Position numbers and translations under genes: made by a program. The notes beneath the pieces are model-generated. The model saw only the letters and a program-made list of their open reading frames with translations. It was not told the DNA's origin and did no database searches. This document shows positions 5,024-56,448 of a stretch of DNA of 64,000 bases, in pieces; position 1 is the first letter of the stretch, and each line of letters begins with the position of its first letter. Source of the DNA: a virus (taxonomy: Duplodnaviria; Heunggongvirae; Uroviricota; Caudoviricetes); the IMG/VR virus record IMGVR_UViG_3300035522_000061, positions 1-64,000 of that record. One strand, written 5' to 3'.

Positions 5024-5468
5024 AGATTTCAAACCTGAAGAGCATATCGCTGATTTGAACAACCTGAAAAGAAATCTAATGTGTTTAAACAGACCTTTTA
5101 GTAGAAGTCTGTTTATAAGTGGACTCAAAGGAATTGGTCTGCCGGACAATGATGTTTTTTGGATGGCAGTGAAACGTAGCGGTATTGTACAACAGCTGAG
5201 CAGAGGCTGTTACATATTCAAGAACGATAAGCCAATACATATTAGTGTGCTGGCTAAAATTCACAAAGACTATCGTAAGATAGTCTGTGATTATAGCAAG
5301 ACTTACAGAGAAAAGCATTCCTCAAAAGAAGTTGAGAAACCTGTAGAAGCTCATGTTCAACTAGAACCTGTACATGAACTTACTGAAGAAAATGCAGTCA
5401 AACTTCTGAAAGAGCTAGGCTATATAATATATAAGCCTGAGGTTGCGATTTTCTACAAAAAATTATAA
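5013..5468 (+). CDS. hypothetical protein
   Basis: 151-aa ORF, basic and Lys-rich. Confidence 0.45.
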   Translation: MRSKDFKPEEHIADLNNLKRNLMCLNRPFSRSLFISGLKGIGLPDNDVFWMAVKRSGIVQQLSRGCYIFKNDKPIHISVLAKIHKDYRKIVCDYSKTYREKHSSKEVEKPVEAHVQLEPVHELTEENAVKLLKELGYIIYKPEVAIFYKKL

Positions 5469-7621: not shown

Positions 7622-8428
7622 ATGGCAATTTAGCGAGTTCGATTCTCGCTTAGAGTGCAAAAAGGATAGTATTCTAGTTTAATCCTTTAGTTACCCATGA
7701 TGGGTAACGTTACTCACTACTTTTAGGTATTAAGTAAAGTTTTTCAGAAAATGCTAGATTGCCTATTTCTGAAAATGCGCTTTTTAAAACGGCAAATAAA
7801 AAGGGTAGAGTACGCCCAAGTCATTTAGTCCTGTTCCTAACCACCTTCTAAATCTGACTTGTAAATATTAAGGTTTGTAAGGTGAGGTCGTAATGAAACA
7901 CTCAAATGGTTAGTCCTTTTGATGCCTATGTTAATGTTTAGCCATCAACGAACATTACGTTTATTAATATGTTAGTGTTAAGTGTTCCCATATCTATTAA
8001 ACTCAATCCTTTATGTATATTCTAGGAACTACAAATCAGAAAGCTTTTGTGATTATAGAAAGTGGAAAAGAAATTATTTTTACTTATGATTATACAAGAG
8101 CTAACCAGTATGAAAAAATAGGAGATGCTATGAAAATGGCAGCTACTATAAATCACATATTAGGAAAATGTATAATATCAATAATAAGTGGAAATTTTGA
8201 TTGATTTTACGTTATGCTTAAATATTTTAGGCATTGCCTTAATAGCTGTAATAAGCTATCTTTTTAAAACCTCAGTTTCTAGTAATCTGTAAACTAGTGA
8301 CTTTTCGAATTTTCAACAAGAAAACTAGGGTTTAGCACAACCTAAAAGTGAACTGACCAATGTCTATTGGTAAAAGAGGTTTTATTGTATTGGTGAGGTT
8401 TCCGATATGTAGAATAAGATCTCTTAAT

Positions 8429-8495
8429 TCCTTATAGCTTAACTGGATAAAGCGCAATATAGTATTGAGTTTTGGGTTCGAATCCCAATAAGGAA
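8429..8495 (+). tRNA. tRNA-like gene (degenerate anticodon arm)
   Basis: Acceptor TCCTTAT/ATAAGGA. D-arm GCTT...AAGC. T-arm TGGG-TTCGAAT-CCCA. The anticodon arm has only a 4-bp stem and a 5-nt loop. Confidence 0.35.
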
Positions 8496-8513
8496 ACAAT
8501 AATATTTTAGATT

Positions 8514-21450: not shown

Positions 21451-22071
21451 TTGAAACATTTAACTCTAAGTTTAGAAGAGGAAATAAATCTCTTGGACAA
21501 ATATAATTTAACTCCTAATGAATTCCTAATAGTTAAAGTTCTTCTATTATTGCAAGATAATGAAGAAGAAGAATTGTTTTATAATTTAATAACAACTATA
21601 AAACATATTGGGCTTGCATTGCGAGATATTCTTATTAGTTTACAAGAGAAGGGTGTAATTTTAAAAACATATAAAGTACCATCTGAAGGAACTAAATTTG
21701 ATCCTTTTGCTATTCCTATTAATAAGAATTTTGTAAAGCATTTTTATAAATGTTCTTTTGAAATAGGTAAAGAATTATTTGATAATTATCCTCAGTTCGC
21801 TACTATTAACGGTTGTGTAGTACCCCTACGTACTGTTGCTAAGAAGTTTGATTCATTAGAACAAGCTTATCTTAAATATGGTAGAGCAATTGGATTTAAT
21901 CCAGAAAAGCATGAGAAAATTATAGAATTAGTTAAATGGGCAAAAGACAATAATATCTTAAATTGTTCTTTAGCTTCATTTATAGTTAATGAAGGGTGGC
22001 ACGATTTAGAGGCTCTCAGAAATGGTAAAGATGTGGCAAATATTAATTATGATGCAGTTAGAATTTTATGA
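21451..22071 (+). CDS. hypothetical protein (upstream partner of the helicase, possible loader)
   Basis: 206 aa. ATGA-coupled to the DnaB-like gene. Confidence 0.35.
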   Translation: MKHLTLSLEEEINLLDKYNLTPNEFLIVKVLLLLQDNEEEELFYNLITTIKHIGLALRDILISLQEKGVILKTYKVPSEGTKFDPFAIPINKNFVKHFYKCSFEIGKELFDNYPQFATINGCVVPLRTVAKKFDSLEQAYLKYGRAIGFNPEKHEKIIELVKWAKDNNILNCSLASFIVNEGWHDLEALRNGKDVANINYDAVRIL

Positions 22072-22847
22072 TTGCAGAATCATTACTTCATCAGATTGAA
22101 GTAGGTAGATTAGGTAAGCAGTGGGGATACTCAATGGGTCTCCCAAAATTAGAAGAGATAATAGATGGAGTATCTAGAGGAATTTATACTTTAGTATTTA
22201 GTCCTACTGGTAGTGGTAAGAGTTCACTTGCTTTATATTCTTATGTATATAGACCATTAATGGAACATCTTGATGATGGTAATTTTAAAGTTAGTTATTT
22301 TTCATTAGAGATGAGCGCCGAAATGATCTATGCTAAGATATTAAGTATGTATATCTTTGAAACTTATGGAATAGAGTTGTCTACTGGAGAACTTCTTTCT
22401 AGAAAACGTAATTATAAATTATCTGATGATTATTATAAAATAACTCAAGAATGTTTACCTTGGTTACAGAAGGTTGAAAAGATTTTAGTTATTTATGATA
22501 AAGCATTAAATGCTAGTAGTTTATATACAATCTTAATGGCTCAACTAGAAAAAGATGGCAAGTTTGAAGAAACAGATGGTAGAAAAATATATCATCCTAG
22601 TAATGAAGAACTTACTCATTTAGTAGTTATAGACCATTTAAGTTTAGTAAGAAGGTCTAATGGACGTACTCTAAAAGAAGAAATGGATTTAATATCCTCC
22701 TATTTGGTAACATTAAGAAATATATGTAAAATTAGTCCGCTTGTAATTATGCAAGCAAATCGAAATTCTACTTCTATGGATAGAAGAAAAGAAGGATTAA
22801 ATAACTTAAGAATTGATGATACCAAAGATACTGGTGCGCCAAATTAG
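22068..22847 (+). CDS. DnaB-like replicative helicase RecA-fold domain, exon 1 (gene interrupted)
   Basis: Walker A SPTGSGKSS, Walker B HLVVIDHLS and MQANR motif. The ORF stops just before the conserved arginine-finger region, which reappears ~250 nt downstream. Confidence 0.6.
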   Translation: MIAESLLHQIEVGRLGKQWGYSMGLPKLEEIIDGVSRGIYTLVFSPTGSGKSSLALYSYVYRPLMEHLDDGNFKVSYFSLEMSAEMIYAKILSMYIFETYGIELSTGELLSRKRNYKLSDDYYKITQECLPWLQKVEKILVIYDKALNASSLYTILMAQLEKDGKFEETDGRKIYHPSNEELTHLVVIDHLSLVRRSNGRTLKEEMDLISSYLVTLRNICKISPLVIMQANRNSTSMDRRKEGLNNLRIDDTKDTGAPN

Positions 22848-23091
22848 GGCTAGACGCACCTAAAACTCCGTTAAACGGGGAAACTCCTAAATAGGACAAT
22901 CCCGTGCTAAATCCTTTAGAAATAAAGGAAAACGCCTAACGACTAGAAGTGATGCTAAACAGGTAGAGCTGTAGCTATAAAATCTTCCACGAAAGCGGGG
23001 CACTGCTTACATTTGTAAGTTAAAGAGATAGTCTGAACTATATAGTAATATATAGAAGTATAAGATAAAGAACTTATACGATAACATTATG
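22837..23091 (+). mobile_element. putative group I intron in the DnaB-like helicase gene (no homing endonuclease; boundaries +/-10 nt)
   Basis: ~255-nt GC-richer non-coding gap between two halves of one helicase. The downstream half has no ATG. Confidence 0.4.
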
Positions 23092-23944: not shown

Positions 23945-24871
23945 ATGCAACAAAATAATTATTCATTTTATGTTCTTAAATCGGACATATCGCCAGACGA
24001 AATTCGTTATGTAGGAGTAACTACTCAAAAATTAGATAGAAGATTTTCTCAACATAAATACTGTGCTAACCATCCAGAAAAAAGAGGATTACCTGTTCAT
24101 AAATGGATATACTCTGTATATAAAAATGGGGGCTCAGTTATTATAGAGAAAATAGACGAATGCTCAGAAGAAGCTTGGGAAGCTAGAGAGCAATACTGGA
24201 TTAGTTATTATAAAAACCTTGGACATAAATTAATGAATATTGACAAAGGAGGAAAAGGTGTAATAACTAAAGAAAAAAGAAGTATTGATTCTCTTACAAG
24301 AGCAGGAAATGCCCATAAAAAACCGATAACAGCATTTAATTTAGATGGCACTAAATATAAAGATTTTGATTCTATTACTGAAGCAGCAGCTGAATTAAAC
24401 GGATCAATAACTAATATAGATAGTGTATTAAATGGTAATTCTAAATCAGCTTGTGGTTTTATATGGAAATATAAAACAGAAGAAGAAAAAATAGATTCTT
24501 ATAAAAAAGAATCTATTGGAATTAAAATATATCAGTTTGATTTATATGGAAATTTATTAAGAGAATTTGAAAGTAAAAAGTGTGTAATTCAATTCCTTAA
24601 TAAAAATAGCCACCACGCGTTGGATAAAGCCATAAAAAATAAAACTGAATATAAAAGGTTCTTTTGGGCATTAACTGATAAAATAAATATTTCCGAGTAT
24701 GTATCTCCATTTAAATATAAGATTACTAAAAATGGAGAGGAAGTAATTCAATTAATAGAACAAAAAGAAGTTGCTGAGTATTTATGTATATCTAAATCTG
24801 CTGTTAATCAGTGGTTAAAGAAATATAACGGATCGTTTTCATGTAATAATTATATTGTTGATACAATCTAA
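23945..24871 (+). CDS. GIY-YIG homing endonuclease
   Basis: N-terminal YSFYVL...IRYVGVTTQ...R, then FSQHK and N motifs. C-terminal repeated DNA-binding modules (NUMOD/IENR-like GFIWKYK, HTH). Confidence 0.65.
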   Translation: MQQNNYSFYVLKSDISPDEIRYVGVTTQKLDRRFSQHKYCANHPEKRGLPVHKWIYSVYKNGGSVIIEKIDECSEEAWEAREQYWISYYKNLGHKLMNIDKGGKGVITKEKRSIDSLTRAGNAHKKPITAFNLDGTKYKDFDSITEAAAELNGSITNIDSVLNGNSKSACGFIWKYKTEEEKIDSYKKESIGIKIYQFDLYGNLLREFESKKCVIQFLNKNSHHALDKAIKNKTEYKRFFWALTDKINISEYVSPFKYKITKNGEEVIQLIEQKEVAEYLCISKSAVNQWLKKYNGSFSCNNYIVDTI

Positions 24872-49668: not shown

Positions 49669-49833
49669 TATTATTATTTATAAAAATTTTATTTGATGGA
49701 TAATTAAAAATTCAATATCTTTACACATGAAGAGTAATAATGTATTAAATAAAATATTATGAATAAAGAAGAAAAATTAGTTAAATTTTTGTAGAAGGCT
49801 AATGAAAAGTTTCCACAATTTGATTATTCAAAA

Positions 49834-50562
49834 GTGGAGCCTTTTTCAAATCAGGAAAAAAATTATGTTACGATTGTTTGTAAAGATCATGGTGAGTTTA
49901 GAACTACCCCAAGAACATTTTTAGATGGAAAATATGGATGTCCTACCTGTGCTAGATTTTTAAAAGGGAGAAATAGTAAAAGTGATTTAAATAATATTGT
50001 TACAAATTCTTTACCAGATATGTTAATTATTGAATCTCCCATAATTGTATTAAAAGAAAAAATTATAGGAACAGTTTACTGTTTTATAAATACTATTAAT
50101 AATAAATTATATATAGGAGAAACAGTAAAATCTAATTATGAGGAACGTTTCAGTGAGCATAGAAATAAAGCAGAAAAAGGTAATAATTATTTTTACAAAG
50201 CTATAAGAAAGTATGGCTGGGATAAATTTGATAAAGTAATATTGTTTCAAACAGACGTTCTAGATAATACGCCGGAGAACAAAAAATTATTGAATGATAT
50301 TGTTAACGAAAAAGAAATATATTATATTAATAAATATAAAACTTCTGATCATAAATTTGGTTATAATTTAACTAATGGAGGTGATGGAATTGTTGGCTAT
50401 AAGCATTCAGAAAAAACTCTAAAAACTTTATCAGAAACTCATTCTGGAGAAAAACATTGGAAATATGGCAAAAATAATTATGGAGGTTGCGCAATTTTAC
50501 AATTTGATCTTGATTTTAATTTAATTAAAGAATGGGACAGTATGAAAGAAATAGAGCGTTAG
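49834..50562 (+). CDS. GIY-YIG homing endonuclease (N-terminal part)
   Basis: VYCFINTINNKLYIGETV...YEERFSEHRN is a GIY-YIG module. C-terminal NUMOD-like repeats. Ends at an in-frame TAG immediately before the next ORF. Confidence 0.6.
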   Translation: MEPFSNQEKNYVTIVCKDHGEFRTTPRTFLDGKYGCPTCARFLKGRNSKSDLNNIVTNSLPDMLIIESPIIVLKEKIIGTVYCFINTINNKLYIGETVKSNYEERFSEHRNKAEKGNNYFYKAIRKYGWDKFDKVILFQTDVLDNTPENKKLLNDIVNEKEIYYINKYKTSDHKFGYNLTNGGDGIVGYKHSEKTLKTLSETHSGEKHWKYGKNNYGGCAILQFDLDFNLIKEWDSMKEIER

Positions 50563-50952
50563 ATGGATTATAAAAGTAATAATATATCTAGATGTTGTAA
50601 TAATAAAATAGATACTTATAAAGGTTACATATGGGTTAAGAAAGATTTATATTATGAAGGGTACCTACAAAAATATAAATCTAGGGCAAAATGTAAATCA
50701 AATGATAAATCCGTATTGCAATACGATTTTCTCGGAAATTTTATATCTAAATATATTAGTTGTGCTGAAGCCGGAAAAGCACTTGGTAAAATTACAGTAA
50801 GTAGTGCTGCCTCAGGTAGAGATGCTCAATTATATGGTTACATTTGGATATACGAAACAGATTTTTCAGAAAAATTACTCACCGAAAAATTAGAAAAAGT
50901 AAAAAGTACTAAAAAATATAAAACCTTTATGGAACAGATTAATAATTGTTAA
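50563..50952 (+). CDS. homing-endonuclease DNA-binding repeats (probable C-terminal continuation of 49834..50562)
   Basis: Repeats KGYIWVKKD and YGYIWIYETDF resemble NUMOD/IENR modules of GIY-YIG enzymes. Starts 1 nt after the upstream TAG. Confidence 0.45.
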   Translation: MDYKSNNISRCCNNKIDTYKGYIWVKKDLYYEGYLQKYKSRAKCKSNDKSVLQYDFLGNFISKYISCAEAGKALGKITVSSAASGRDAQLYGYIWIYETDFSEKLLTEKLEKVKSTKKYKTFMEQINNC

Positions 50953-52220: not shown

Positions 52221-53078
52221 ATGAAGAGCTTTAAAATTTCACAATTAATAACTGATAGACAAGATGCATCCTTGGGATTATATTTCAAGGATGTATCTAA
52301 GCAGTCTATGATAAATGCAGATAAAGAAGTAAGTCTTGCCAAACGTATAAAGCAAGGAGATAAGGAGGCTTTACAGGAATTAGTAAATGCCAATTTAAGA
52401 TTTGCAATTTCAGTTGCCAAACAATATCAAAATAAAGGACTACCTTTAGTAGATTTAATACAAGAGGCTAATATTGGTTTAATAAAAGCAGCCCAAAGTT
52501 ATGATGAAACTAGAGGATTTAGATTTATTTCTTATGCGGTTTGGTGGATAAGACAATCTATTATGCACGCTATATCGGATCAATGTAGAACAATACGTGT
52601 TCCGATGAATCAAATTGCTAATGTTAATAAAATAAATAAAGTAACTGCTAAATTTGAACAAGAGCATATTAGAAAACCCTCTCCAGAAGAATTAGAGGAC
52701 TTGCTAGATATTCCTGTTTATGATATTAATTTGGCAACAGCATCTTTTAATAGGTCTGTATCATTAGATACTCCTTTTAGTATGGATGAAGACGCAGGAA
52801 GTCTAGTAGATATTATTCCTAATGAAAATGCAGAATCTACAGATTCCTCTTTAATAAAAGACGGAATATCTAAAGAATTGGAAGTAGTTTTATCTAAATT
52901 ATCTTATAGAGAGCGAGATGTTCTTAGAATGTCTTATGGTTTAGGTATGCAAGCTATGCAACATGAAGAAATAGCTAGTAGATTTGGTATAGGATGTGAA
53001 AGAGTTCGTCAAATTCAACATGAAGCTATTAAAAAAATTAGAGATAGATATAGTGATTTATTAAAAGAATTATTATGA
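52221..53078 (+). CDS. sigma-70 family RNA polymerase sigma factor (regions 1.2, 2, 3 and 4)
   Basis: DLIQEANIGLIKA...FISYAVWWIRQSI (regions 2.2-2.4). Region 4 RMSYGL...EEIASRFGIGCERVRQIQHEAIKKIR. Confidence 0.8.
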   Translation: MKSFKISQLITDRQDASLGLYFKDVSKQSMINADKEVSLAKRIKQGDKEALQELVNANLRFAISVAKQYQNKGLPLVDLIQEANIGLIKAAQSYDETRGFRFISYAVWWIRQSIMHAISDQCRTIRVPMNQIANVNKINKVTAKFEQEHIRKPSPEELEDLLDIPVYDINLATASFNRSVSLDTPFSMDEDAGSLVDIIPNENAESTDSSLIKDGISKELEVVLSKLSYRERDVLRMSYGLGMQAMQHEEIASRFGIGCERVRQIQHEAIKKIRDRYSDLLKELL

Positions 53079-53154
53079 TTAAAACTATATTAGCATTCCG
53101 AGAATCCCGAGGAAGAGAAATCGAAACTGCACCTTTAGAAGTATTTCAATTAAA

Positions 53155-54444
53155 ATGATTTATTTAGTAAGTAAAGATAAAAAACTATATTCTCCAGAAA
53201 GATATAGAGAAGTAGACTTTAAGGAGGCTATGGATATTTTATATCCTTTAAAAGAGGTACAATTAGATACAGAAACTAAAGGATTAGATTGTTTTACGAA
53301 GGAATTACTTACTTTGCAATTAGGGTGTACTGAAAATCAAGTTGTATTTGATTGGAGAACTATAAGTCCTTCTGAAAAGTCTATTTTAAAAGAATATCTA
53401 GAGTCTGATAGAGTGTTCTTGGGGCATAATATAATGTTTGATTTAACCTTTTTATATAAACAAAATATTTGGCCCAATCATGTTTATGATACTATGGTAG
53501 TAGAACAATTAATATATTTAGGGTATCCTAGAGTATTAGCTACCGAAATAGTACAGACATATGGAATTAAACCTTCTTGTTATGAATATATTGCTCCCGA
53601 CGAAAAAACTAAAGAACATTGGGAATTATCTTATTCTTTACGAGCTACTGCAAAAAGAAGACTTGGAGTAGATATTGACAAAACTGTTCGAGGAAAAATT
53701 ATAAATGAAGGTTTAACAGAAGATGTTGTAGTATATGCTGCTGGGGATGTAATGTGGCTAGAGCCTATAAAAGAAAAGCAACTAGAAGAATTATCTACTC
53801 AAGATCTTTTAAAGGCTGCAGAATTTGAATGTGAATTTATTAAATTTTTAGCATATGTAAAATTCTGTGGAGTTCATTTGGATATTTCTAAATGGAAAGA
53901 AAAAATGAAAAATGATCAAGCTTCTTTAAGAGAAGCTGAGTCACAATTAAATAAATTTGTTATAGATTTAGATGCTAAAGAATATTTATATAGATATGCT
54001 AAAAATAAAAAAGAAAAAGAAAAATTAGTAGCATTAGGATTTATTCGATTTCCCGAAAAAGATGATTCTATGGAGTGTTACAGATATAAAATAAAAGGAA
54101 AATTTGTATCTATAAATTTACAATTATCCTTATTTGAAGAATGTAATGACATAGGGCCACAATGCACTATAAATTGGAGTAGTTCTACTCAAGTTATAAA
54201 ATTATTTGAACTTCTTGGGATACAAGTTACAACTTTTGATAAAAAGACTAAAAAAGAAAAGAAGTCCATTAATGCTACGTTAATTAGTTCTCAAGTTGAT
54301 AAATTTCCTATTCTTGCTATATTTTTAAAGTATCAAGCCGCCTCAAAAGTTGTATCTACTTATGGTCAAAACTGGTTAGACGCTATTAATCCAGTAACTG
54401 GAAGAATTCATGTTGATCTACATTCTATTGGAACAGATACAGGT
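53155..54444 (+). CDS. family A DNA polymerase, exon 1 (3'-5' exonuclease plus N-terminal polymerase part)
   Basis: Exo I QLDTETKGLD, Exo II HNIMFDL and Exo III YAAGDV. Ends ...VTGRIHVDLHSIGTDTG. The track ORF stops at 54459. Confidence 0.7.
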
Positions 54445-55515
54445 GAAAAATTTCCATAAATTACAATTTTTCTATTAATTTTATTTCTAAGGTATTAACT
54501 ATTTTAATCTGTCCTAAATAATTATTATATTTGCATATAATAAATTTAAATTAAATATATGTATTATGATTAAAAAATGGACTGAGTAGGAAATAGAAAA
54601 TTTAGTATCTGAGTATAACTCAGGTAAAGATACTGGAGAATTAGCAGTTATGTTTAATTGTTCTAAGTATCAAATTAGAAATAAATTAAAAGATAAGGGG
54701 ATTGTTTTAAGAAAAACTGCCCTTAATCGAACTTATAAATCGAAAGCTATTGTTCCGTTACAAGCATGGACAGATAAAATAGGCAGTCCAGAATTTGACT
54801 ATTTTATTGGAATACTAGCCTCGGATGGTTGTATTGTTGATACTTGTACAGCTTTAGAAGTTAAAGATTTAGAATTAATAGAAAATTATAATAAATTTTT
54901 AGGTTTTCGATGTAATATTAATTCAAGAAAATCTAAAGTTAATGGCAATGTCTATTATAATATTAAGTATAAAAATAAAGAAATAGTTAACTTTTTATCT
55001 GAATATGGTATAGTGCCAAGAAAATCTAACATACTAATGCTTCCATATATAAATTGGAATATATTATTAGGAATTTTTGATGGAGATGGTAGTATTACTA
55101 AAGATAAAAGATATGAGTGCTGTTTTAAATTTACTATTACTTCTGGAAGTATTAATTTTATTAATCAAGTTAAGAAGTTTTTAGAAAAAGAGAATATCTC
55201 TCCAAATATACAAGAATATAATACAGATAGTGGACATTGGTATAATATATATGTAACTAAAGGTGAACATATATATAAAATATATTGTAATTTATATAAA
55301 GACTCCTCTTTCTTTCTGTCTAGAAAGAAAGAAAAATTCGGCCCCTTAGTAGAGAAATTTGCTAAGTGTAACTCCGTAAATTCAGTTAATGGGAGGGAAA
55401 ACCAGAAGACTGAGCCAAGCCTTAATATTGAGGAAGGTGCAGAGACTAGAAACGGAGAACCTAAGTAATAAGTAATTGTTATAAGGTTGAGGTATAGTCC
55501 GGCATGGAAATGTTG
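54445..55515 (+). mobile_element. putative group I intron with LAGLIDADG homing endonuclease splitting the DNA polymerase gene
   Basis: Splicing after ...GATACAGGT (U at -1) to CGAGTATCTAGT... (intron ends in G) yields GTDTG|RVSSGGG..NLP, restoring the Pol I TGR(L)SS...QNIP motif. Confidence 0.5.
54650..55468 (+). CDS. LAGLIDADG homing endonuclease
   Basis: IGILASDGCI and LGIFDGDGSI motifs. Confidence 0.7.
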   Translation: MFNCSKYQIRNKLKDKGIVLRKTALNRTYKSKAIVPLQAWTDKIGSPEFDYFIGILASDGCIVDTCTALEVKDLELIENYNKFLGFRCNINSRKSKVNGNVYYNIKYKNKEIVNFLSEYGIVPRKSNILMLPYINWNILLGIFDGDGSITKDKRYECCFKFTITSGSINFINQVKKFLEKENISPNIQEYNTDSGHWYNIYVTKGEHIYKIYCNLYKDSSFFLSRKKEKFGPLVEKFAKCNSVNSVNGRENQKTEPSLNIEEGAETRNGEPK

Positions 55516-56448
55516 CGAGTATCTAGTGGTGGTGGTCAGTATAAATTAAACCAACAGAATTTACCACATGATAAAATAACTAGAGCATGTTTTACTTCAG
55601 AAAAAGGTAATAAATGGATTTCTTGTGATTACCAAAGTCAAGAAAGTAGAATTATTGCATCTGTTTCTAAAGATAAAGCTATGGTAGAATTATTTGAATC
55701 TGGATGTGGAGATGTTCATAGTTTGGTTGCCTATATGTCTTATCCTAATATAATTCCCAGAGACACTAAAATAGAAGATATAAATGAACTATATCACGAT
55801 CAAAGACAGGATGCAAAAGGAATTGAGTTTTCAGTTAATTATGGCGGGGATGCTAAAACTATAGCTAATAATAAAGGTATTCCGTTGCGAGCTGCAGAAA
55901 AGATATATTCTGATTTTATGAGGGGTTTTCCAGGAGTAGCTCAATATCAAGAGTATTGTAGGCAAAATGTAATGGAAAAAGGATATATCTTAATGAACTC
56001 TATACTAAAGCATAGAGCCCATATTTATGATGCAGATTGGATTATACAAATGCATGAGAAATGTAAAGATCCTGAATATTGGCAATATTATCAAGAAATG
56101 AAAATAGAATCTCCACATTGTGACACTGTTAGAAATGTTAGTCATTATCTTAGTCGGAAATCAGACTGTGAAAAGCAATCCATAAACTACAGAATACAAA
56201 ATCGTGGGGCCTGCGCTTTCAAATTATCTGCAATTAAACTATTTAATTGGATAAAAGATAATAATTTACTTAATGTAGTCAAAATATGTGTAGTAGCACA
56301 TGATGAATTTAATCTAGAGTGCCCAGAAGATATGGCAGAATATATTGGAGATATATTAGTCAAATGTATGATTGCAGGAGGAAAACCTTTTTGTCCGAAT
56401 GTATTTTTAGGAGCTGATAAAACTATAAGTGATCACTGGATTCATTAA
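55516..56448 (+). CDS. family A DNA polymerase, exon 2 (palm and fingers: motifs A, B and C)
   Basis: Motif A DYQSQESRI, motif B RQDAKGIEFSVNYGG and motif C VVAHDEF. The track ORF starts at 55504. Confidence 0.7.
   Translation, partial: RVSSGGGQYKLNQQNLPHDKITRACFTSEKGNKWISCDYQSQESRIIASVSKDKAMVELFESGCGDVHSLVAYMSYPNIIPRDTKIEDINELYHDQRQDAKGIEFSVNYGGDAKTIANNKGIPLRAAEKIYSDFMRGFPGVAQYQEYCRQNVMEKGYILMNSILKHRAHIYDADWIIQMHEKCKDPEYWQYYQEMKIESPHCDTVRNVSHYLSRKSDCEKQSINYRIQNRGACAFKLSAIKLFNWIKDNNLLNVVKICVVAHDEFNLECPEDMAEYIGDILVKCMIAGGKPFCPNVFLGADKTISDHWIH

Follow-up and report, generated by a model that had tools for sequence, protein, structure and literature searches.

Group I introns that carry homing endonuclease genes have been known in phage DNA polymerase genes since SPO1 and are frequent in the Bastillevirinae (PMC11878797, PMC3428280, PMC3984707). 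According to passages of the same articles, family-A polymerase genes are interrupted in this way in SPO1, in Bastille and other Bastillevirinae and in the T7-like cyanophage Pf-WMP3, and several of these introns splice both in vitro and in vivo. The Pf-WMP3 intron is described as a group IA2 intron that encodes an HNH nicking enzyme (PMC3428280), and the open reading frames (ORFs) of Bastillevirinae introns are mostly of the HNH type, with one LAGLIDADG enzyme reported (PMC11878797). For crAss-like phages, passages of Yutin et al. (2021, Nat Commun, PMC7886860) describe group I introns combined with the reassignment of TAG or TGA in late genes. We analysed a 64,000-nucleotide stretch of a tailed phage genome (positions 1 to 64,000 of IMG/VR record IMGVR_UViG_3300035522_000061, hereafter the window) and report that its family-A DNA polymerase gene, polA, is very probably interrupted by a mobile group I intron of 1,071 nucleotides with a LAGLIDADG homing endonuclease gene. 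We place the window among the crAss-like phages by tblastn of the spliced polymerase against crAss-like PolA genes.

The introns described in PMC7886860 belong to the same virus assemblage, gut phages of about 150 kb. They differ in having been identified by protein domains and in interrupting the MCP, PolB, primase, ATP_43b and TerL genes; the passages concerned give no ribozyme structure, guide sequence, PolA insertion site of the TG/R type (the slash marks the exon boundary here and below) or subgroup assignment. Compared with the introns of SPO1, Bastille and Pf-WMP3, that of the window has no extra helices between P7 and P8, resembles subgroup IC3, codes for a LAGLIDADG enzyme and has no nucleotide-level match among deposited phage records. 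Distant homologues of its endonuclease, with 25-29% identity over 74-85% of the length, are encoded by Staphylococcus Twortvirinae and by the crAss-like phage cr6_1. In these phages, too, the endonuclease gene separates the two halves of a split gene for replication or recombination, and its annotation is that of an intron-encoded enzyme. There, however, the host genes are RecA/UvsX-like and ATPase genes, and identity is low. The IC3 introns of tRNA genes (Azoarcus tRNA-Ile, cyanobacterial tRNA-Leu) have a compact core, a guide directly 5' of P2, a P1 of 3 bp and an L2 GAAA tetraloop with a CCUAAG/UAUGG receptor in P8. They reside in tRNA anticodon loops and are mostly devoid of ORFs, whereas the window intron lies in a protein-coding gene and has a P1 loop of 900 nt with an endonuclease gene that reads into the core.

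The polymerase region comprises three co-directed ORFs on the plus strand (53155-54459, 54650-55468 and 55504-56448). The first, of 434 amino acids (aa), contains a 3'-5' exonuclease domain (Pfam DNA_pol_A_exo1) followed by the initial quarter of the DNA_pol_A profile, and the third, of 314 aa, matches the remainder of that profile (positions 127-379). A preliminary description of this DNA had recognized a family-A polymerase encoded as two ORFs with a LAGLIDADG ORF between them, and the ORF coordinates and Pfam matches agree with it. It had also proposed to join the two ORFs at ...GGT and CGAGTA, with a U at position -1 and a terminal G as in group I splicing. That join, 54444/55516, is exact to the base: base 54444 is a T and base 55515 a G, and deletion of 54445-55515 fuses GAT ACA GGT in frame to CGA GTA TCT. 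The resulting product has 740 aa (...HSIGTDTG/RVSSGGGQYKLNQQNLP), and the spliced mRNA is predicted to read GATACAGGT/CGAGTATCTAG at the junction.

The join restores colinearity with uninterrupted polymerases. Residues 1-740 of the product aligned in one tblastn piece with the uninterrupted PolA genes of Bacteroides phage crAss001, IAS virus, cr112_1 and others, at about 42% identity, and single-piece alignments were also obtained with the uninterrupted genes of IMG/VR loci L001-L006, L010 and L012. In L001, GTDTGRVSSGGGPYKLNLQQLP is read straight across the junction position. Many full-length homologues with 58-73% identity were recovered from among 5.8 billion proteins, and an alignment to PolA homologues, a check suggested in the preliminary description, was free of gaps through DTG/RVSS. 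In the 10-sequence alignment A1, made with full-length homologues of 62-73% identity, the junction is likewise free of gaps and R431, the first residue of exon 2, is invariant. The insert separates the codons for G and R in the conserved segment TGR(V)SS.

The 434-aa exon-1 ORF, including its intron-encoded tail EKFP, was found in 100% identical records on 13-16 assembled contigs from several samples, the longest of 153,638 nt. The interruption is thus the normal condition of a phage that recurs across samples, and this recurrence fits a viable phage. Nucleotide searches of deposited phage genomes with the polymerase region and the intron, in near and distant modes, gave no matches, and relatives were found solely by protein-guided and pattern scans. 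The spliced-junction 20-mer GATACAGGTCGAGTATCTAG had one match in the metagenome collection, in an unrelated bacterial surface-protein gene without similarity to the window, and was dismissed as a chance hit.

Both exons can pair with one internal guide sequence, 5'-AUUCG/GCC-3', situated just 5' of P2. The last bases of exon 1, GGU, pair with GCC to form P1 (U54444.G55341 followed by two G-C pairs), and the first bases of exon 2, CGAGU, pair with AUUCG to form a P10 of 5 bp. We compared the window with eight related copies of the intron, described below. The 5' exon ends in GGU and a GCC guide directly precedes P2 in nine of nine copies, and all of them have a G immediately before the 3' exon. 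In L027 and L028 the exons end in GGGU and the guide is GCCC. P10 covaries between guide and exon, with AUUCG/CGAGU in the window, (A)UUUG/CAAG(A) in the copies at a second site and UUCU/AGGA in L028; in a pairing table of six family members, the 3' exon/guide combinations are CGA/UCG, CAA/UUG and AGG/UCU. The U at -1 and the terminal G are thus as expected for group I splicing, U54444 pairing with a guide G and G55515 being terminal. Two other guide candidates, UCUGUCC at 54508-54514 and a GAAAAAUU/AAUUUUUC hairpin at the start of the intron, were rejected, as neither provides a U.G pair or is conserved in L023 and L028. GCC at 55341-55343 was preferred because it is invariant and accounts for both exons.

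The ribozyme core, P2-P9, occupies the 3' 185 nt of the intron. The Rfam search for a group I intron that had been suggested for the insert, limited to 54300-55700, matched Intron_gpI at 55312-55516, ending at the proposed 3' splice site, with 43.1 bits and an E value of 2.6e-9; this score is below the RF00028 gathering score of 50 bits. The structure of P2-P9 was drawn by hand on alignment A2, which contains nine sequences (the window and the eight related copies). Standard pairs fill 97% of its 438 cells, and 24 of the 49 pairs are changed on both sides. None of 500 shuffles attained either value, and shifting the 3' partners by 1-3 columns reduced pairing to 27-42%. Compensatory changes are exemplified by P3, which is CUCCG/CGGAG in the window, CUCUG/CAGAG in L023, CCUCG/CGAGG in L027 and UUCCG/CGGAA in L028. 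The thermodynamic minimum free energy (MFE) fold of 55332-55515 recovered P2, P3, P4, P5, P6 and P8 independently (z = -2.8). All elements of the RF00028 core, namely P3-P8, the P3/P7 pseudoknot and the P4-P6 domain, are present. A hairpin at 55309-55332 (CUUUCUUUCU-GUCU-AGAAAGAAAG) that recurs in the relatives was not retained as a ribozyme helix; it encodes the conserved protein motif FFLxRKK and sits in the P1 loop. Taken together, the Rfam E value, the covariation and the pairing of the guide with both exons support the earlier reading of the insert as a group I intron. The coordinates are collected in Table 1.

Table 1. Positions in the window of the polymerase exons, the proposed intron and the elements within it
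Feature	Position	Strand	Remarks
polA exon 1	53155..54444	+	codons 1-430; exonuclease domain and N-terminal polymerase part; ends ...GAT ACA GGT; DNA_pol_A_exo1 7e-15, DNA_pol_A positions 29-119
P1, 5' strand	54442..54444	+	exon GGU, pairs with GCC 55341-55343; U54444 forms the U.G wobble at the cleavage site
Group I intron (proposed)	54445..55515	+	1,071 nt; begins directly after U54444 and ends with G55515
TAA closing the exon-1 frame	54457..54459	+	four codons into the intron (tail EKFP-stop)
TATATTTG, possible Bacteroidota-type -7 promoter element	54526..54533	+	32 nt upstream of the endonuclease ATG; weak lead
LAGLIDADG homing endonuclease gene	54566..55468	+	300 codons if TAG 54587-54589 is sense; standard-code ORF 54650-55468, 272 aa
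In-frame TAG, endonuclease codon 8	54587..54589	+	MIKKWTE-TAG-EIENLVSEYNSG...
Internal guide sequence 5'-AUUCG/GCC-3'	55336..55343	+	GCC with exon GGU (P1); AUUCG with 3' exon CGAGU (P10)
P2 hairpin	55346..55365	+	8 bp, GAAA tetraloop 55354-55357; 6/8 pairs compensatory, 100% of cells paired; in MFE fold
P3	55372-76 with 55453-57	+	4/5 pairs compensatory; Rfam alignment; MFE fold; domain 55372..55457 encloses P4, P5, P6/P6a and the P7 5' strand
P4	55382-87/55408-13	+	within P3 domain
P5	55390-93/55402-05	+	within P3 domain
P6/P6a	55414-15/55437-38 and 55420-23/55430-33	+	within P3 domain
P7	55444-48 (GACUA) with 55495..55499 (UAGUC)	+	pseudoknot with P3; invariant in nine copies; Rfam consensus AUAGUC
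P8	55458..55488 (55458-61/55485-88; 55466-71/55476-81)	+	loop GUAA; 7/10 pairs compensatory
CCUAAG in P8	55460-65	+	5' half of 11-nt GAAA-tetraloop receptor
P9 hairpin and terminal G55515	55501..55515 (55501-05/55510-14)	+	loop GGAA; 3/5 pairs compensatory
polA exon 2	55516..56448	+	codons 431-740; R431 of TGR(V)SS, motifs A, B, C; starts CGA GTA TCT; DNA_pol_A 127-379, 1e-34

These features suggest how the polymerase mRNA would be made. In the folded pre-mRNA the guide would pair with the last three bases of exon 1, and a guanosine bound in P7 would attack after U54444. The guide would next pair with the first five bases of exon 2, and the freed 3'-OH of exon 1 would attack after G55515, yielding an mRNA for the intact 740-aa polymerase. 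By analogy with other intron-encoded LAGLIDADG enzymes, the endonuclease would cut intron-less polymerase alleles near GGT/CGA in co-infection, and repair of the cut allele would copy the intron in. The predicted homing target in an intron-less allele is GGAACAGATACAGGT/CGAGTATCTAGTGG, whose synthetic form is GGAACAGATACAGGTCGAGTATCTAGTGG.

The preliminary description had suggested subgroup IA2 or IB, which the core does not support. P7 and P3' are only 4 nt apart (GAAA, 55449-55452) and P8 begins at the base after P3', leaving no room for P7.1 and P7.2, hallmarks of IA2. L2 is GAAA in all copies, and P8 contains CCUAAG, opposed in several relatives by UAUGG, which makes up the classical 11-nt GAAA receptor, and in the window by UAAGG. 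With its exon pairing of 3 bp, the core resembles the compact IC3 introns of tRNA genes, such as those of Azoarcus and Anabaena, and may belong to that subgroup. Over GAGCCAAGC...GAAGGUG(C/U)AGAGACUAGA...ACCUAAG the core is presumably near-identical to these tRNA introns, and we likewise take its stretch GAGCCAAGC...GAAGGUGCAGAGACUAGA...ACCUAAG to be close to bacterial IC3 sequences. A scan with the latter motif retrieved more than 119 IMG/VR contigs, indicating that this type of core is common in phages.

The endonuclease gene belongs to the LAGLIDADG family by both motif and profile. Pfam LAGLIDADG_3 matched with 49.3 bits (cutoff 22.5; 6e-13), the two motifs are FIGILASDG (54803-54829) and LLGIFDGDG (55064-55090), and residues 5-258 matched phrog_4645, 'endonuclease', at 2e-30. 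The best match to a solved structure was weak (2dch, an archaeal putative homing endonuclease, E 0.011). Over residues 2-300 the protein is 56% identical to the intact endonuclease of the L023 intron at the same site, and it is 42% identical to the enzyme of the second-site intron of L018. As the preliminary description had it, the ORF has its own start and stop in a frame that differs from that of the exons. The start probably has to be moved from ATG 54650 back to ATG 54566, since the stretch between them, with the single TAG at 54587-54589, is included both in the similarity to the enzymes of L023 and L018 and in the PHROG match. The same description held that the ORF is flanked by untranslated sequence, and this does not apply to its 3' end, where the last 130 nt or so are ribozyme core.

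The ORF is carried in the P1 loop, the roughly 900 nt that separate the 5' splice site from the guide. Its frame then runs on through the guide, P2, P3, P4-P6, P7 and P3' to the stop codon TAA 55466-68 inside P8, such that translation of the ribozyme core produces the conserved C-terminal tail, ...CNSVNSVN..KTEPS..EEGAETRNGEPK. L028 has kept the RNA but lost the reading frame, indicating that the constraint acts on the RNA. According to a passage in a review, the expression of intron ORFs that extend into core sequences is tightly controlled (PMC3984707). The promoter-like element of Table 1 has counterparts in L023 and L018, where TAnnTTTG also occurs 24-27 nt upstream of the endonuclease ATG. 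The window has 100 occurrences of TAnnTTTG where 99 are expected, so that the motif is not enriched and the element is a weak lead.

The intron has relatives at two sites of the same gene. An 18-nt piece of the core (GGTGCAGAGACTAGAAAC) was found in 14 IMG/VR contigs, nearly all of them in crAss-like polymerase genes. Copies at the G/R site are those of the window, L023 (also fetched as L032) and L028, and copies at the second site, DYSG/QES in motif A, are those of L018, L022, L023, L027, L029 and L030. The same-site intron of L023 scored 54 bits with Rfam, above the gathering score. The endonuclease copy of L028 is disrupted or decayed, and L022, the second-site intron of L023, and L027 are ORF-less derivatives of 264-324 nt that retain only the 3' end of the ORF. 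Intact, decayed and ORF-less copies are the stages expected of a homing cycle. The strain variants L039 and L041 differ from the window at 77 of 9,305 positions, none of them in the 1,071-nt intron, and a single difference was seen in the 3 kb spanning 52605-55631. Recent spread of the intron, accompanied by co-conversion of exon 1, may underlie this pattern, as may local recombination alone.

More insertions were seen in the PolA genes of these phages. In L019, L022, L023 and L024 the gene is in up to five pieces, and Rfam detected 3-4 group I introns per gene; L023 has a mini-exon of about 21 nt (approximately 5221-5241, RLSSSNP) between two introns. Insertions in the TGRxSS...NLQQLP region occupy at least three positions across these phages, and L013 carries one after KLNLQ.

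Several observations weigh against the proposal of a mobile, self-splicing element. Catalytic splicing, endonuclease activity and homing are activities that we infer from sequence. P1 is the weakest element of the window intron, with only 3 bp to the exon, and it extends poorly, G+1 and A+2 being unpaired opposite G55340 and C55339. At the Rfam gathering thresholds the window intron gave no match, and in a scan of the whole 64-kb window in E-value mode with default-like filters the match was lost. The endonuclease ORF overlaps about 130 nt of the core, so its translation could interfere with folding, and the enzyme, given its in-frame TAG, is possibly inactive. Our searches revealed no allele of this phage species that lacks the intron; the nearest uninterrupted homologue is only 73% identical, and recent mobility is therefore not demonstrated. 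The low Rfam score has an explanation in that the model forces P1 and P2 onto nearby ORF sequence, the true 5' strand of P1 lying some 900 nt upstream. Exon pairing of 3 bp with a poor extension is typical of compact IC3 introns such as the Azoarcus ribozyme. The weak P1, the sub-threshold score, the in-frame TAG and the UAAGG that replaces the UAUGG receptor half of several relatives in P8 would also suit a decayed intron, which would splice inefficiently or depend on a cofactor or maturase, leaving the polymerase impaired or reliant on the LAGLIDADG protein or a host factor. We consider decay improbable, because every core helix is intact in the window, short exon pairing is normal in compact IC3 ribozymes, the interrupted gene is present on many contigs from several samples, the intron is the same in strains whose flanks differ at 77 of 9,305 positions, and the replication block encodes no other polymerase. 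That some LAGLIDADG proteins are maturases, as stated in a review (PMC3984707), is a further point in favor of such dependence.

The locus could also be read as encoding a split polymerase, in which two ORFs are translated apart to form a two-subunit enzyme and the LAGLIDADG gene is free-standing, as in some T4-like phages. Exon 1 has its own stop codon (54457), and exon 2 is preceded in frame, at a distance of four codons, by an ATG (55504). Public gene calls split the locus into three genes, and the related record cr116_1 is annotated as two polymerase coding sequences and an endonuclease. Nevertheless, a split enzyme accounts neither for a covarying group I core whose end coincides with the junction nor for the pairing of the guide with both exons. 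The break would fall between G and the invariant R431, within a contiguous conserved segment, and the ATG at 55504 is inside P9 of the ribozyme. We therefore regard a two-subunit polymerase as very improbable. An intein, which would be made as part of the polymerase chain and excised from the protein, would be compatible with an insert of 1,071 nt, a multiple of three, between exons that share a frame, and LAGLIDADG_3 domains are common in inteins. However, the insert contains 62 stop codons in the exon frame, the first at 54457 after four codons, the LAGLIDADG ORF is in another frame, Pfam detected no Hint or intein splicing domain, and the insert carries a ribozyme core. An intein can be regarded as excluded, and the argument that the preliminary description had raised against it was correct. 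A group I intron in polA is thus the reading that we retain.

The genetic code of the phage bears on the TAG at codon 8 of the endonuclease. Flanks of the same phage were fetched as L156, with 2 differences from the window in an overlap of 10,563 bases, and L159. In the 5.8 kb upstream (L156 1-5813), plus-strand ORFs of 499, 1,052 and 157 codons are obtained only if TAG is sense, with 17, 28 and 3 in-frame TAGs, respectively. Likewise, three minus-strand ORFs in the 10 kb downstream (L159 10400-20312) have 979 codons (18 TAGs), 796 codons (14 TAGs) and more than 1,538 codons (32 TAGs). Under the standard code these flanking genes are reduced to fragments of at most 241 aa. Such long ORFs with many TAGs indicate that the phage reassigns TAG in presumably late genes, as has been described for many crAss-like phages in passages of PMC7886860. 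The 64-kb window itself is a standard-code replication block, in which TAG terminates merely 2-4 of the 79 long ORFs.

Only two genes of the window, both for homing endonucleases, have coding pieces that are joined by an in-frame TAG. One is the LAGLIDADG gene, with the TAG at its codon 8. The other is a GIY-YIG/NUMOD-type gene (49795-50952, plus strand) downstream of the DNA ligase gene, made of pieces of 256 and 130 codons and a single in-frame TAG at 50560-50562. This TAG is inside the conserved DNA-binding module and is the only one of the window to join two sizeable coding pieces. No amber suppressor tRNA was found in the 64-kb window or in the approximately 8-10 kb beyond each end. A tRNA-like gene at 8428-8496 (plus strand; Rfam 50.9 bits, not called by ARAGORN) has normal-looking acceptor, D and T arms and an anticodon arm of 13 nt (CAAUA-UAG-UAUUG), 4 nt below the standard; as it lacks a CUA anticodon, it is no obvious amber suppressor. 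In-frame stops in endonuclease homologues across the fetched loci were mixed (TGA, 5; TAG, 4; TAA, 4), a pattern that speaks neither for nor against recoding. In the distant LAGLIDADG homologues L102 1741-2427 and L070 357-1109, the in-frame stops are TGA only (three and one, respectively), and these genes may be translated under TGA reassignment.

It is conceivable, although we consider it rather doubtful, that synthesis of the endonuclease is gated by the genetic-code switch of the phage. The LAGLIDADG ORF traverses the ribozyme core, and as long as an amber suppressor is absent, the early TAG would halt ribosomes after 7 codons, leaving the intron free to fold and to splice the polymerase mRNA; the full endonuclease would be made only when TAG is decoded. 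Alternatively, both endonuclease genes may be fresh pseudogenes, or the LAGLIDADG protein may start at 54650.

Outside the polymerase gene, the window contains a second group I intron at 22798-23055 (plus strand), which is ORF-less, about 258 nt long and matched by Rfam Intron_gpI with 70.3 bits (E 8.6e-16); its splice sites are approximate. It interrupts a DnaB/RecA-type replicative helicase gene, of which the upstream ORF, 22068-22847, has its TAG stop inside the intron, and the downstream part is in another frame, to about 23399. Approximately 0.9 kb downstream of this intron lies an intact GIY-YIG/NUMOD-type endonuclease gene of 308 aa without an in-frame stop (23945-24871, plus strand). 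Directly upstream of the polymerase gene is a complete sigma-70 family gene (52221-53078, plus strand) with Pfam regions r1_2, r2, r3 and r4 in the public gene call.

Both phage polymerase genes and crAss-like phages are established hosts of elements of this kind, and the finding leaves the current understanding of phage introns unchanged. The details that are new relative to the cited passages are the PolA TG/R site, the ribozyme structure and the guide sequence; no new kind of element is described. Annotations of this phage and its relatives should give the polymerase as one spliced 740-aa protein instead of two fragments and an endonuclease. The locus also adds a structurally defined family of crAss-like introns, with an IC3-like core, a GCC guide at sites that follow GGU and a LAGLIDADG gene in the P1 loop. 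The presence of one element at two sites of one gene (TG/R and SG/Q) documents ectopic spread, and the region encoding TGRxSS...NLQxLP is an insertion hotspot. Finally, TAGs in the homing endonuclease genes of a TAG-recoding phage provide a testable link between stop-codon reassignment and the control of selfish elements.

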